The translations under genes and the position numbers were made by a program. Below the pieces are notes generated by a model, which worked only from the letters and a program-made list of their open reading frames with translations, was not told the DNA's origin and made no database searches. A stretch of DNA of 40,740 bases from Microcoleaceae cyanobacterium (GTDB taxonomy: Bacteria > Cyanobacteriota > Cyanobacteriia > Cyanobacteriales > Microcoleaceae), in the NCBI GenBank assembly GCA_051652765.1, contig JBOFUV010000042.1:1-40740 (forward strand), given 5' to 3'. This document shows, piece by piece, positions 1 through 4,660 of the stretch (positions are counted from its first letter, which is position 1; each line of letters opens with the position of its first letter).

Positions 1-241
1 ATATGATGATTGATGAGATATCTGTGATGTAGGCAAGATGCCCACTCCAGGTTTACACTGCAAGTCAGATCGCCATGTCAACAACATTAACAAGTTAGTT
101 TAAGGAATTTTGGAAATCCGCTCTGTAGTTCTCCCTAACCTCCAATTCTGACCGGAGGAGTAACTCACTAATCTTTGCATAACCGACAATTTGTCAGAGA
201 TAAGTAGAGTTAGGAACTAATCACATCAGGAGTGGAAATTG

Positions 242-643
242 ATGAAGCTAAACAGCACAAAATCCCTAAATCTACCGCATTCCCCAAGTCAACACCCACA
301 AATTCAACATCTGCACATTCAACAAGCAATAGAAACCTATCAGCAAGCCGTGGAGATATTGGAGTCCTTGGGCGATCGCTTCTCTATCGGTATCATGCTG
401 TACCACATTGGGTTCCTCAATAGTCAATTGGGCAAATCTCAAGCCGCACTTCAGGCTTACCAACAAGCCTTAGTCATCTTTCAAGACTTGGGCGATCGCT
501 CACGGGAGGCGATCACATACTATGGCTTGGCCTTAATCTACAGTCAGCTCGGTCAAACTCAACGAGAGTTAGACCTCTACACACAAGCTCAACTCCTGGG
601 AATTGACCAAAATCGGAACAGCGCTGTCGCCAAAACTGCATAA
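242..643 (+). CDS. Short tetratricopeptide repeat (TPR) protein
   Basis: About 3 TPR-like helical repeats (AIETYQQAVEILESLGDR, ALQAYQQALVIFQDLGDRSREA..Y.GLA.IY). AGGAG at 228-232 favours the ATG at 242. Confidence 0.8.
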   Translation: MKLNSTKSLNLPHSPSQHPQIQHLHIQQAIETYQQAVEILESLGDRFSIGIMLYHIGFLNSQLGKSQAALQAYQQALVIFQDLGDRSREAITYYGLALIYSQLGQTQRELDLYTQAQLLGIDQNRNSAVAKTA

Positions 644-722
644 GCCGCTTCATGCTGGACATATATACAGTTAAGGATCTTAGTTGACTTTACTTTGGGT
701 ACTCTCACTAGAGGTTATGACC

Positions 723-896
723 ATGCAACTCTCTCCTACCCTCATTGAACGGGTTATTCTGAGCGCTTTAATCACTGTGCTGGCATCTATTCCGCTCACT
801 CAAACCAAGACTCAAGCTGAAGTTGCGCCAAGTCACGAGAGTCATTTGACCGCCTATCACGCTGGCACTCTCAGCTTGCCCTTGCTCAAGTTTTAA
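723..896 (+). CDS. Small putative secreted peptide (57 aa)
   Basis: GAGG at 711-714 precedes ATGs at 717 and 723. Hydrophobic core VILSALITVLASIPL, then a TQA|E signal peptidase-like site and a 25-aa His-rich mature part. Confidence 0.55.
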   Translation: MQLSPTLIERVILSALITVLASIPLTQTKTQAEVAPSHESHLTAYHAGTLSLPLLKF

Positions 897-921
897 CGTC
901 CTCTGGTTTAACGTCTTCTGG
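892..921. repeat. 15-bp tandem duplication TTTAACGTC(C/T)TCTGG x2
   Basis: Read directly at 892-906 and 907-921. Confidence 0.85.
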
Positions 922-946
922 TTTTCCTTTAGTTAGAGTCATCTTT

Positions 947-2014
947 ATGGAACCTCAACCCCCCCTCCAATCCCGTTTAGAAACCCTCCATCAAACTGGC
1001 CAACAGTACCTGCAGCAGGGTGAGTTCCTAGCTGCTTTAAAGCTCTTTCAACAACTGTTGGCGATCGCTGAGGAAACAGCCAATACTGCTCTGCAAGCAG
1101 AAGGATTAATTCAGATTGGTACTATTCACTATCATTTAGAGCATTCTGCTTGGGCAATTAAGTGTTTTGAGCGAGCGTTGATCTTTGCTCAACAGCTTCA
1201 GAGTTCCCAGAAAATTGCTGAAATTTACCAAGGAATCGGTCGAGTTTACTTTTCCTCAAAACAGTATTCTCAAGCCCTCAGATTTTACGTCAATGCCTTA
1301 GAAACTTTACAGGATCAGTCGGATTTGCTGGGCATGAGTTCTACCTTAAATTGTTTAGGTGAAGTTTACAACACAATTGGTTTGTTTGAAGAAGCCCGTC
1401 GGTGTTGTCGAAAAGCGTTACTGATTGTTGAGGAACTGGAGAAATCCTCTGAAGCTCAAGACCTTAATCTTCAGAAGCCTTTCAAAGCTTTGATTTTGCA
1501 CAATCTCGGTGTCGCTGAATATCATAGAGGTCGGATTCATCAAGCTTTAGCCTATTTGCTCCAAGCTTTAGCAGTTCAGCAAAAACTTAATCATTGTCAG
1601 TCTGAAAATCCAGATGCGTGTCATTTTTCATCTCGAAAAGTAGCACTGCAGTCTGCCAAAACCCTCCAACAAATTGGTACTGTTTACCTGGCACTTGAGA
1701 AATTCAATAAAGCCTTTGATGCTTATCAAAAAGCCGAAAAAATCTATCAAGTGTATGAACAACCCGAAGTCTATGCCCAAGTCCTGAACTTTTTAGGACT
1801 TAGCTGTTATCAGCAGGGAAATACTTCACAATCGCTGTGGTACCATGTTAAGGCTTTGGAACAATTTAACCAGCTAGAGCGTGTGACATCAGAGCTTGGA
1901 AAGTTGCCCCATATACTCACTATTTACCGTGAGTTTGATCTCTTAGATGAGGGAGTGAAACTCTATCGTCGCACCCAAGAACTCCTAAAAATGCTAGGTT
2001 CGGAGGTGAGCTAA
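947..2014 (+). CDS. TPR protein (about 7 repeats)
   Basis: Repeated TPR motifs (TLNCLGEVYNTIG, ILHNLGVAEYHRG, TLQQIGTVYLALE, VLNFLGLSCYQQG). Confidence 0.88.
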   Translation: MEPQPPLQSRLETLHQTGQQYLQQGEFLAALKLFQQLLAIAEETANTALQAEGLIQIGTIHYHLEHSAWAIKCFERALIFAQQLQSSQKIAEIYQGIGRVYFSSKQYSQALRFYVNALETLQDQSDLLGMSSTLNCLGEVYNTIGLFEEARRCCRKALLIVEELEKSSEAQDLNLQKPFKALILHNLGVAEYHRGRIHQALAYLLQALAVQQKLNHCQSENPDACHFSSRKVALQSAKTLQQIGTVYLALEKFNKAFDAYQKAEKIYQVYEQPEVYAQVLNFLGLSCYQQGNTSQSLWYHVKALEQFNQLERVTSELGKLPHILTIYREFDLLDEGVKLYRRTQELLKMLGSEVS

Positions 2015-2049
2015 AATCAGGCTGAATCATGGGGCTTAACCATTTCCTT

Positions 2050-2084
2050 AATAGCCATTTTCTCAATAGCCATTTTCTCAATAG
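2050..2084. repeat. 15-bp tandem repeat AATAGCCATTTTCTC x2.3
   Basis: Exact copies at 2050-2064 and 2065-2079, plus a partial copy. Confidence 0.9.
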
Positions 2085-2101
2085 ATAGTGAAGGATGGAT
2101 A

Positions 2102-4660
2102 GTGAAAGGCTTGACTCACAAAGATGTACAACCGATTCGTTCTTCGACAGACCCTATCTTTCACTTAACTGCTCAACAGGTTGATAGCGTCTGTTTGTTT
2201 GAGCTGTCTTGGGGGCGGGGTCAACGTTTGGGGGTCAGAATTCCCTACCCTGAGCTGATGACTCAACTCTATCAAGAGTGGCAACAGATGTACCTGAGCT
2301 TCTACAAGCAGGCATTGCGGGGTCGAGTGGATCGATCGGGAAAGATTCCCCTAGCTCCTACAGATCCTAATGTTGCGATAGACTGGCATTCAAAGTTAGT
2401 CCAGGCTGAGGCCAAGCTGCTCTACCAATTTCATCGTTGGTTGCGCCATGAGGACTTATTTGAAATTCGCGCTACGATTGCCAAGGCGGTTTCCAAGTCA
2501 GTTCCCCAGTCCTCAAGTCAATGGCCGAGTTTTCCATCCCAGGTTGATGTGTTTCTCACGGCTAGCCCCCTTGATTTGGCGCGTCTACCTTGGGAAGCCT
2601 GGGAAATTGGCACTGAATTCACCGCCACTGGCAAAATTCGGATTGTCCGCAAGCCGCTCAATATTCGCAGTGAAACCCAGTTATCGTGCCACTCAAGTCG
2701 AACGCGTCGGATGAGAGTGCTGGCCATTTTAGGGGATGAAACGGGGTTGGATTTTAAGGCGGATAAGGATGCGGTGCGATCGCTCTCTCCCCTAGCTGAA
2801 ATTTGTTTTGTGGGATGGCAACCGGGCAAAGGAGCCGGAGAACTTCGAACTGAGATTGCTGAAGCGATCGCGGATCGCCAGGGATGGGATGTATTATTCT
2901 TTGCTGGACATAGCAACGAAGCCGAACTCGTGGGCGGCGAATTGGCCGTTGGCCCCAAGATCTCACTTTACTTGAATGAGTTGATTCAACCTCTCACCAT
3001 TGCCAAGGAACGAGGTTTGCAATTTGCCATGTTTAACTCTTGTAAGGGTTTAAGCTTGGCGAATGCTCTGATTGATTTGGGGTTGTGTCAAGTGGCGGTG
3101 ATGCGAGAGCCGATTCATAATCAGGTTGCCCAGGAATTTTTGTTGCATTTTCTCCGGAGTCTAGGGGCCTATCAGGATGCCCATGATGCCTTGTTGTCTG
3201 CCTGTCAATTTCTCAAATTGGAGAAGCAATTGACCTATCCCAGTGCCTACTTGATTCCTTCTCTATTTCGCCATCCTGACGCTCCAGTATTTCGCCTAAG
3301 ACATACTTATTGGCTCGATCGGGTCAAACAATGGCTGCCCCGCAAGCGGGAGGCGATCGCCCTCAGTGCTGTATTAGTTGCCAGTTGGCAGTTGAGTTTA
3401 CAGGAAGTTCTGCTGGATCAGCGAATGTTAGTTCAGACTCTCTATCGTCAGTTGACCCATCAAGTGTCCAGAACCGCCTCACCACCGATTTTGCTGGTTG
3501 GAGTGGATGAAGAGTTTATCATGCGTAATAAAATCTCCAATCCCAAACCCTTTGATCGTCAGTTGCTCGCTCAGATCATCGATCGATTGGTGGCGGCAAA
3601 TGTTACGGTCATCGGCCTTGATTATCTGCTGGATCGATACCAACCGGGGAACGATGAACGCTTGGCTGTGTCCATTCGAGGGGCCGTTCAAGACCAAGCC
3701 ACCTGGTTTACCTTTGTGAGTAAGTTTAAGGAACGGAACTGTTTTGTGGATACGATTCCAGAGTTGGCTGATCCGAGCTGGAGCTTGAGTGGGGATTTAA
3801 GTATTTTGGGGGAGATTCCGCTGTACATGGCCTTATTGTCTCAACCTCAGGAACAGTCCCCCGATGCCTCCTGTCCTGCACGTTTGCCCTTTTCCTACCT
3901 TGTAGCCTTGAGTCACTGGATGCAGGTTGAGCAATCGAACCCGCCCCAGCCCAAGTTAACGGCTTCGAACCAGTGGCTGAATCAGATTAGAGTCAGCTTG
4001 ACTGACGAGACCGGAGAAGACTATCAAACGCTATTTTCTCCTCGCTCTACCCAGCACCCTGTTACCCTACTGGCGTATCGGCTGAACCAATGGTGGTTGC
4101 ATCCCGTGATTGATTATTCCATTGCACCCCAACACGTGTATCAACTGCTCCCAGCTTGGCAACTCTTGCAGGAACCAATCGCTACTTTAGACTTGCCTCC
4201 AGAACCCTTTATCGCGTTAATTGCTCCATGGGGCTACGGCGAAGCAGGCATTGACCAGGATGGAGAGGATAACTTTCCAGTTCCCTTGGCCCTAGATTAC
4301 TGGCGATCGCAGGCAACGACCGAGACACAAGCCTCCATGCCAGAGAAAATGCCAGGGGCCGAGGTTCATGCCTACATGACCTATCATTTTCTCCATCAAC
4401 GGTTTGTGGTTCCGATTCCTGATCTCTGGATGATTTTAGTCTTTGCTTTGATTGGCAAAGGGGCAACCCTGGCAATTCGTCAAGCTCCCGCTCAACGGGC
4501 AAGGTGGATACTGCTGTTGATTGGGGCAACGGGACTTTATGGACTGATCAGTTTACAACTCTACATTACTGGAGCCATTCTGCTGCCGTGGAGTTTACCC
4601 GTGATCACCTTGTGGATTTATAGTCTGTTTGCTCTGCTGGAGAGAGAGTCTTATGGCTAA
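2102..4660 (+). CDS. CHAT (caspase-HetF-like protease) domain fused to a CHASE2 sensor with C-terminal TM helices
   Basis: LARLPWE, FFAGHS (His270) and FNSCKG (Cys314) mark CHAT. ILLVGVDE, IGLDYLLD and PGAEVHA mark CHASE2. Three C-terminal hydrophobic helices. GTG start is uncertain. Confidence 0.88.
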   Translation: MKGLTHKDVQPIRSSTDPIFHLTAQQVDSVCLFELSWGRGQRLGVRIPYPELMTQLYQEWQQMYLSFYKQALRGRVDRSGKIPLAPTDPNVAIDWHSKLVQAEAKLLYQFHRWLRHEDLFEIRATIAKAVSKSVPQSSSQWPSFPSQVDVFLTASPLDLARLPWEAWEIGTEFTATGKIRIVRKPLNIRSETQLSCHSSRTRRMRVLAILGDETGLDFKADKDAVRSLSPLAEICFVGWQPGKGAGELRTEIAEAIADRQGWDVLFFAGHSNEAELVGGELAVGPKISLYLNELIQPLTIAKERGLQFAMFNSCKGLSLANALIDLGLCQVAVMREPIHNQVAQEFLLHFLRSLGAYQDAHDALLSACQFLKLEKQLTYPSAYLIPSLFRHPDAPVFRLRHTYWLDRVKQWLPRKREAIALSAVLVASWQLSLQEVLLDQRMLVQTLYRQLTHQVSRTASPPILLVGVDEEFIMRNKISNPKPFDRQLLAQIIDRLVAANVTVIGLDYLLDRYQPGNDERLAVSIRGAVQDQATWFTFVSKFKERNCFVDTIPELADPSWSLSGDLSILGEIPLYMALLSQPQEQSPDASCPARLPFSYLVALSHWMQVEQSNPPQPKLTASNQWLNQIRVSLTDETGEDYQTLFSPRSTQHPVTLLAYRLNQWWLHPVIDYSIAPQHVYQLLPAWQLLQEPIATLDLPPEPFIALIAPWGYGEAGIDQDGEDNFPVPLALDYWRSQATTETQASMPEKMPGAEVHAYMTYHFLHQRFVVPIPDLWMILVFALIGKGATLAIRQAPAQRARWILLLIGATGLYGLISLQLYITGAILLPWSLPVITLWIYSLFALLERESYG

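Follow-up and report, generated by a model that had tools for sequence, protein, structure and literature searches.

Gene organization of the locus

We analyzed the complete contig C42 of the Microcoleaceae cyanobacterium genome coded here as G000 (40,740 nucleotides, hereafter the window; related genomes are coded G### and the loci fetched from them L###), which begins with a short run of genes ending in a predicted CHAT-CHASE2 receptor-protease. Comparison with related genomes identifies these genes as the detached protease half of a cassette that otherwise also encodes a sigma-like protein and a DUF1822 protein. The original prediction had described four co-oriented genes, and four open reading frames (ORFs) are indeed found on the plus strand where it had placed them. 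The features discussed below are as follows.

177..205, plus strand, promoter-like bipartite motif, copy 1, 65 nt 5' of the TPR1 ATG
242..643, plus strand, TPR1, 133 residues, Pfam TPR_12 (E 1e-17)
638..666, plus strand, promoter-like bipartite motif, copy 2, GCATAAG-N13-GACATATAT, overlapping the TPR1 stop codon and 85 nt 5' of the small ORF
723..896, plus strand, small ORF, 57 residues, without a Pfam family
947..2014, plus strand, TPR2, 355 residues, TPR-only, without a signal peptide
2102..4660, plus strand, CHAT-CHASE2 receptor-protease, 852 residues, assigned from Pfam, alignment, an AlphaFold model and Foldseek
2909..2911, plus strand, codon of His270 of the protease, candidate catalytic dyad
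3041..3043, plus strand, codon of Cys314 of the protease, candidate catalytic dyad

Because the second promoter-like motif overlaps the stop codon of TPR1, the four genes probably form two transcription units. The named loci among the relatives belong to filamentous cyanobacteria, for example Limnoraphis, Lyngbya and Capilliphycus.

A predicted CHAT protease joined to a CHASE2 sensor

The protease consists of a separase-like N-terminal region and CHAT domain (residues ~1-410), a weak transmembrane (TM) helix (415-429), a CHASE2 domain (423-783, 62 bits in Pfam) and three C-terminal TM helices. Its match to CHAT (PF12770; 22.2 bits, E 1e-4) falls slightly below the Pfam gathering cut-off of 24 bits, and a 43%-identical paralogue in the same genome scores 34.8 bits. 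The N-terminal region is alpha+beta in the AlphaFold model (predicted local distance difference test score, pLDDT, 83.5), and Foldseek matches this model to SAVED-CHAT, Csx29 and separase (E 3e-9 to 2e-8), with DdvA also matched, over about 300-480 columns that cover the pre-catalytic region and the CHAT domain. The dyad proposed at the outset is intact, with His270 and Cys314 at the expected positions and invariant in 32/32 aligned homologues; no kinase or cyclase output domain is found in the 852 residues, again as proposed. Four hydrophobic segments had also been proposed, and here the three C-terminal helices are clear, being hydrophobic in 26-31 of the 32 homologues, whereas the first helix, linking CHAT to CHASE2, is weak. 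The membrane topology as proposed is plausible from the sequence.

Orthologue counts refer to a survey sample of 144 genomes of the family, related genomes among them not being independent, and the score thresholds for protease and sigma orthologues were placed at gaps seen in the score lists. Protease orthologues (E<=1e-215) are present in 37/144 genomes, as a single copy and with tree-like inheritance across several genera; the distribution is patchy, with none in the 79 genomes of genus g5.

The window holds one half of a split cassette

The core of the cassette is already known from comparative genomics: Kaur et al. (2021, eLife; PMC8195603) catalogue, in the part of that study drawn on here, the association of EACC2-caspase genes with sigma and DUF1822 genes. 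The order in intact cassettes is sigma-like, DUF1822, CHAT-CHASE2 and DUF928-like, with the protease as the third gene. Two paralogues of the window protease (43% identical) occupy such cassettes in the window genome, together with a sigma-like gene (450 residues), a DUF1822 gene and a DUF928-like gene (260 residues). Among 80 related loci, 39 have a sigma-like or DUF1822 gene nearby (DNA examined up to 7 kb), and a DUF928-like gene lies 3' of the protease in G001, G002 and genera g4 and g6. Neither a sigma-like nor a DUF1822 gene is found in the window, where the neighborhood characteristic of EACC2-caspase systems is absent in cis.

An orphan sigma-like/DUF1822 pair is located on another contig of the same genome, at C106:34570-37828 (C106:34478-37828, or L136:4479-7829, with its upstream motif). 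The sigma-like and DUF1822 genes of intact cassettes in G009, G144 and G149 have this C106 pair as their best match (43-53%), and they lie in cis with sister orthologues of the window protease, as do their counterparts in L222; the proteases of G009 and G144 form the sister group to the window clade (support 100/99). Sigma orthologues (E<1e-120) are found in 37/144 genomes and co-occur with the protease in 36 of the 38 genomes that have either, the two exceptions being G049, in which the protease gene is interrupted by the contig end, and G150, which is without a sigma match. On these comparative grounds, the C106 pair is likely the cognate half of the window protease, the window genes are taken to be the detached receptor-protease half of a split form of the cassette, and the likely output and substrate of the protease would be the products of the sigma-like and DUF1822 genes, beyond the window on another contig.

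Like the systems of Kaur et al., the protein has a constant N-terminal module followed by a caspase, and the CHASE2/TM C terminus is a variant named in the portion of that paper considered here; unlike those systems, the cassette is split in the window genome. The likeness to the EACC2 class is judged from the fold and from the alpha+beta N-terminal region. Section 9 of PMC8195603 makes no mention of a stand-alone TPR2, a small protein, a promoter motif or a cleavage site, although the source data of that paper may list these neighborhoods. Likewise, searches of the main texts of the literature returned neither the split arrangement nor the families of TPR2 and the small protein, the letters of the motif or the predicted cut site. 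About 410 aligned columns, comprising the pre-catalytic region and CHAT, are shared with Craspase Csx29, SAVED-CHAT, separase and DdvA; unlike Csx29 and SAVED-CHAT, the window protease is without a fused TPR or SAVED domain and has CHASE2 as its sensor.

Further CHAT cassettes in the window genome are found at L011, L013 and L015 (G000 contigs C74, C54 and C115), some of the sigma-like genes having only 224-280 residues, and the genome carries seven DUF1822 genes and three HetZ-family genes in all.

A bipartite promoter-like motif

A motif with the consensus GCATAA[GC]-N13-GANATA is found in the window at 177 and 638 and also 5' of the C106 sigma gene. Each of the 14 small-ORF homologues (14/14) is preceded, 67-85 nt before its ATG, by GCATAAG, 13 free bases and GA(C/A/T)ATAT. 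The window has two matches versus none in 100 shuffles, to a pattern that was relaxed after copy 1 had been seen, so as to admit that copy. A weight matrix scan of the window genome returned nine matches versus one in one shuffle, and one of the nine lies 92 nt before the C106 sigma ORF. The exact motif is present in 32/37 sigma-positive versus 5/107 sigma-negative genomes (a single identical site accounts for four of these five, and G150 is the other), the reversed pattern is present in 0/144, and beyond the three genera used to derive the motif it is found in 17/22 sigma-positive genomes. It stands 5' of the sigma gene in G002, G005, G007, G045, G009 and genera g9, g11 and g12, with a relaxed form in G144 and G149; further copies lie 70-78 nt upstream of the full-length TPR relatives of G018 and G045, and 5' of TPR2 in G001, a genome without the small ORF.

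At 25 of 35 motif loci taken from seven genomes, a co-oriented ORF with 100 residues or more starts at most 330 nt away; at one locus the only ORF is convergent. A scan of 22 proteins downstream of the motif revealed RTX calcium-binding repeats (four), polyketide/acyl-AMP-ligase proteins (two), pentapeptide proteins (two) and one each of a two-partner-secretion exoprotein, a long TPR protein, an M48 peptidase, a flotillin, a kinase, a hydrolase, a TPM protein and a LuxR regulator; the other six (6/22) are without a family. Genes led by the motif are mostly associated with the surface, export and secondary metabolism. We infer that the motif is a promoter read by the C106-type sigma.

At C113:32853 (L010:16854, minus strand) the motif heads an operon with a paralogous sigma/DUF1822/CHAT-CHASE2 cassette, which suggests cross-regulation between paralogous switches. 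Other sites in G000 (C37:30538, C17:27652, C136:4949, C7:5694 and C55:11616) stand 5' of a 555-residue enzyme-like gene, short ORFs and a 1447-residue repeat-rich protein. Tandem copies (2-4, ~90-450 nt apart) are seen at L201:108-522 (G136), L200, L175, G150 C64, and G152 C936 and C1225; in L201, four copies stand 5' of a short ORF and a two-partner-secretion exoprotein. In G046, the small-ORF promoter motif recurs outside the operon in two additional, near-identical copies (L106:2462, G046:C9:414), perhaps from a partial duplication. A second small protein family of 47-52 residues with the N terminus MQV(R/K)WK (L188:277-420, L195:2812-2955, L180:212-370) is found 92-125 nt 3' of the motif in genera g4 and g6; the two members scanned match no Pfam family.

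The small protein and the two TPR proteins

The small ORF is found in 14/144 genomes from three genera, one copy each (6 of the 14 were already in the query alignment), and a search of 1.84 billion representatives returned 11 matches, 9 of which are full-length small-protein clusters. The ratio of nonsynonymous to synonymous change (pN/pS) over codons 2-21 is 0.15, 0.24 and 0.46 within the three genera and 0.42 overall, and the tail is under moderate constraint (0.44-0.51). The protein has a single conserved hydrophobic helix with the signature E[RK]xILSxL, followed by a C terminus that varies in length and sequence and in which a loose L-x-x-L-x-P-L pattern can be seen by eye; the invariant residues M1, E9 and L13 all fall within the first 16 positions. 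Maximum Kyte-Doolittle scores of the helix (KD15 2.0-2.8) are signal-like, the net charge of the n-region is 0 in 14/19 members, and the RG(S/T)GR inhibitor motif is present in 0/19 aligned sequences. These data characterize the small ORF as a genuine, narrow protein family and a conserved companion of the protease, which it precedes in 14/14 genomes. On the protease tree this distribution requires one gain and one loss, inside a clade (support 99/97) that is also detached from its sigma pair; the loss is in G001, which retains the motif, TPR2 and the protease. No small-ORF match is found in 24 of the 37 genomes with an intact protease match. Conservation at the N terminus is easier to reconcile with a membrane helix, or with an export signal that is conserved, than with a conserved diffusible motif; a fast-evolving ligand is an unlikely alternative.

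TPR1, judged from its relatives, is a truncated relic of an exported TPR gene of 400-470 residues. Its residues 28-131 (counted from TTG at 239) align at 50% identity with the C-terminal end of the TPR protein at the same position in G045, which has 472 residues and a signal peptide; the G018 version has 399 residues, and relatives of 391 residues precede the protease in G013 and G024. In TPR1 the signal peptide is gone (maximum KD19 0.89), the missing part of the gene has no match in window positions 1-300, and no TPR1-type gene is found upstream in 7/7 other genomes checked.

TPR2 orthologues are found in 25/144 genomes: 11 have the gene ahead of the protease, 13 have it as a tandem pair and one has a fragment; 10 of the 13 tandem pairs are directly 3' of the sigma-like/DUF1822 pair, which is every case where the contig reaches. 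Beyond the family, TPR2 is flanked by DUF1822 and the protease in L222, L228 and L248 (L222 is an intact sigma-DUF1822-TPR2-protease cassette), L246 has it ahead of the protease and G038 has it behind DUF1822; these sequences form one clade (FastTree 1.000). Since TPR2 accompanies both halves, we take it to be an optional fifth cassette gene. Pfam reveals no helix-turn-helix or other output domain in TPR2.

The gene linkage on which the original prediction turned is thus conserved, with small ORF-TPR2-protease in 10 genomes and small ORF-protease in 4 more, TPR2 orthologues staying with the cassette in other families too, and the full four-gene order recurring in G018 and G045, where the first gene is full-length. 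The individual gene assignments fared unevenly: the first gene does match TPR but is a fragment of a longer gene, and the supposed secreted peptide belongs to a real family, but its secretion is questionable, the net charge of the n-region being 0 in most members. RRNPP (Rap/Phr) is a peptide signaling system with which the window has in common a small hydrophobic ORF beside a cytoplasmic TPR protein. The proposal that the locus works in this way is not sustained: unlike in RRNPP, the peptide and TPR2 are inherited separately (15/25 TPR2 genomes give no peptide match and 4/14 peptide genomes no TPR2 match), conservation in the peptide falls on the hydrophobic N-terminal helix and not on a C-terminal mature peptide, and TPR2 has no output domain.

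A candidate cleavage site and the comparison with HetF

PMC9457339, in the passages available, reports that HetF cleaves PatU3 between R117 and S118, which are followed by P119 and E120 (YR/SP, the slash marking the cut). In the DUF1822 proteins of these cassettes, a linker of variable length carries an Arg-Ser or Arg-Gly pair (R[SG]) located 130-153 residues from the C terminus in 15/20 sequences, in a segment picked after the consensus had been seen; R[SG] is present in 11 of the 12 closest sequences and RSP in 7/20, and random segments give R[SG] in a mean of 1.8 and a maximum of 7 of the 20 sequences. The PatU family has an invariant R 138-154 residues from the C terminus (30/30). By analogy, the cut site in the C106 DUF1822 protein would be Arg336 (AMR/ST).

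The parallel with the HetF-PatU3-sigma-HetZ system of Anabaena PCC 7120 (relevant passages of PMC9457339 and PMC13342950) includes a membrane CHAT protease and a partner with an Arg-Ser motif, and it would extend to a divergent sigma whose bipartite promoter serves small peptides as well, patS and patX being sigma-HetZ targets in the available part of PMC13342950. HetF has periplasmic TPRs where the window protease has CHASE2, and the HetZ promoter is given in these sources as TCCGGA-N16/17-TGNA (PMC13342950) versus GCATAA-N13-GANATA here. The window genome has its own hetZ-patU at C3.

Proposed mechanism and alternative explanations

We consider it moderately probable that the window genes are the receptor-protease half of a split cassette in which the membrane CHAT-CHASE2 protein releases a sigma by cutting DUF1822. 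What supports this, from sequence and comparison, is the domain layout and dyad, the orthologues in intact cassettes, the co-occurrence of the halves, the motif of fixed spacing and the Arg-Ser/Gly linker. An outside cue acting on CHASE2 would activate the cytoplasmic CHAT protease, which would cut DUF1822 after Arg336, as HetF cuts PatU3, and so free the sigma. The freed sigma would then transcribe from GCATAA-N13-GANATA promoters its own gene and the window operon, giving positive feedback, as well as genes for exported and surface proteins. Both TPR2 and the small protein would be accessory modulators induced by the sigma; for TPR2 the proposed site of action is the cytoplasm and the proposed target either the protease or DUF1822. 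When the cassette split, the protease was probably captured by the promoter of the small ORF.

Several observations weigh against this mechanism. The sigma assignment of the C106 protein is weak, with three agreeing signals, none of which passes its own threshold: TIGR02937 matches at E 0.004, below the cut-off; Foldseek gives no match at E<=0.001, with sigma-70 chains at the top of the list (best E 0.11); and language-model neighbors of the protein carry Sigma70_r4. HHalign gives a probability of 2% for the sigma-like protein against HetZ of the same genome and 0.2% for DUF1822 against PatU, and of 0.5% for the C-terminal domains alone; because this profile comparison finds no homology of sigmas or partners, the HetF model is one of functional analogy. 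The CHAT-CHASE2 linking helix is short and weakly hydrophobic (KD19 1.46; 11/32 homologues above 1.5), and the co-occurrence counts are overstated, since kin genomes are not independent. The exact motif is missing from 5/37 sigma-positive genomes, and no motif was found at the 11 loci of genera g9, g11 and g12 that surround a detached protease gene. Moreover, the DUF928-like gene, the usual 3' neighbor of the protease, is missing at the window locus; because of this absence and the truncation of TPR1, the locus may be somewhat eroded. Finally, literature searches found no experimental study of any cassette member.

It is unlikely, in our view, that the small protein is exported and processed, its mature part being an activating or inhibiting ligand of CHASE2 or TPR2 in cell-to-cell signaling. 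The signal-like helix (maximum KD15 2.0-2.8), the constrained tail (pN/pS 0.44-0.51) with its loose L-x-x-L-x-P-L pattern, the place of the small ORF as first gene behind the motif, as with patS and patX under sigma-HetZ (available part of PMC13342950), and its position before the protease in 14/14 genomes, kept where TPR2 is lost, would all suit such a ligand. That linkage, however, amounts to one gain and one loss on the tree and not to 14 events; the peptide is lacking from 24/37 intact-protease genomes and was lost from G001 with motif, TPR2 and protease kept; its invariant residues all lie in the first 16 positions and RG(S/T)GR is absent; and the exported DUF928-like protein is a more general neighbor of the CHASE2 protease. 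Retention in the membrane, with the conserved helix binding the TM bundle of the protease as a feedback brake or activator, is a little harder to credit. Here the concentration of conservation in and just before the hydrophobic helix, an n-region mostly without the net positive charge of a Sec signal, and a closer tie to the protease (14/14) than to TPR2 (10/14) speak in its favor, but the small protein is absent from most orthologous systems, and promoter capture accounts for the linkage without contact.

A different account makes the protease a death or anti-invader effector that cuts general targets or itself, with the sigma link secondary. Section 9 of PMC8195603 places EACC2-caspase systems with conflict systems and proposes autopeptidase activation, the nearest folds are CRISPR-linked CHAT proteases, and the distribution is patchy (0/79 genomes in genus g5). 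Set against single-copy, tree-like inheritance over several genera, the housekeeping character of the remaining window genes and the mostly surface, export and secondary-metabolism genes led by the motif, these points leave this account quite improbable.

The remainder of the window

Between TPR2 and the protease start, positions 2037-2084 contain a short, imperfect 17-18-nt repeat in which a CCATTT core occurs three times. Most of the remaining window (4678-40738) is taken up by housekeeping genes, including threonine-synthase-like and MoaD-like genes (by eye), an EgtB/EgtC-like pair, a prepilin peptidase, an accD-like carboxyl transferase, two cytochrome c550 genes, aminolevulinate (ALA) dehydratase, aspartokinase, glucokinase and a sugar transporter. 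An RTX-repeat sugar dehydrogenase is also present, as is a cyclic nucleotide (cNMP)/sigma-54-interaction protein interrupted by the contig end. No cas genes were found among the window ORFs scanned.

Implications

The cassette is widespread in filamentous cyanobacteria, and in the split form its halves would stay together as a regulon. This analysis provides concrete handles on the system, namely the promoter consensus, the predicted DUF1822 cut site Arg336 and two accessory families, TPR2 and the small protein. A more speculative extension, which we regard as unlikely, would place another activator-inhibitor circuit alongside HetZ-PatU3-HetF-PatS, in filamentous cyanobacteria not known to differentiate cells; here the sigma would induce itself, the receptor-protease and, from the first gene of the protease operon, a small exported peptide gating CHASE2 in neighbor cells, producing a cell-to-cell pattern of surface and metabolite genes; such a circuit, if true, would supply the ligand for CHASE2. 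If the proposed mechanism is true, HetF-type protease-gated release of a sigma would be a general envelope-signaling device in cyanobacteria and not a heterocyst specialty.

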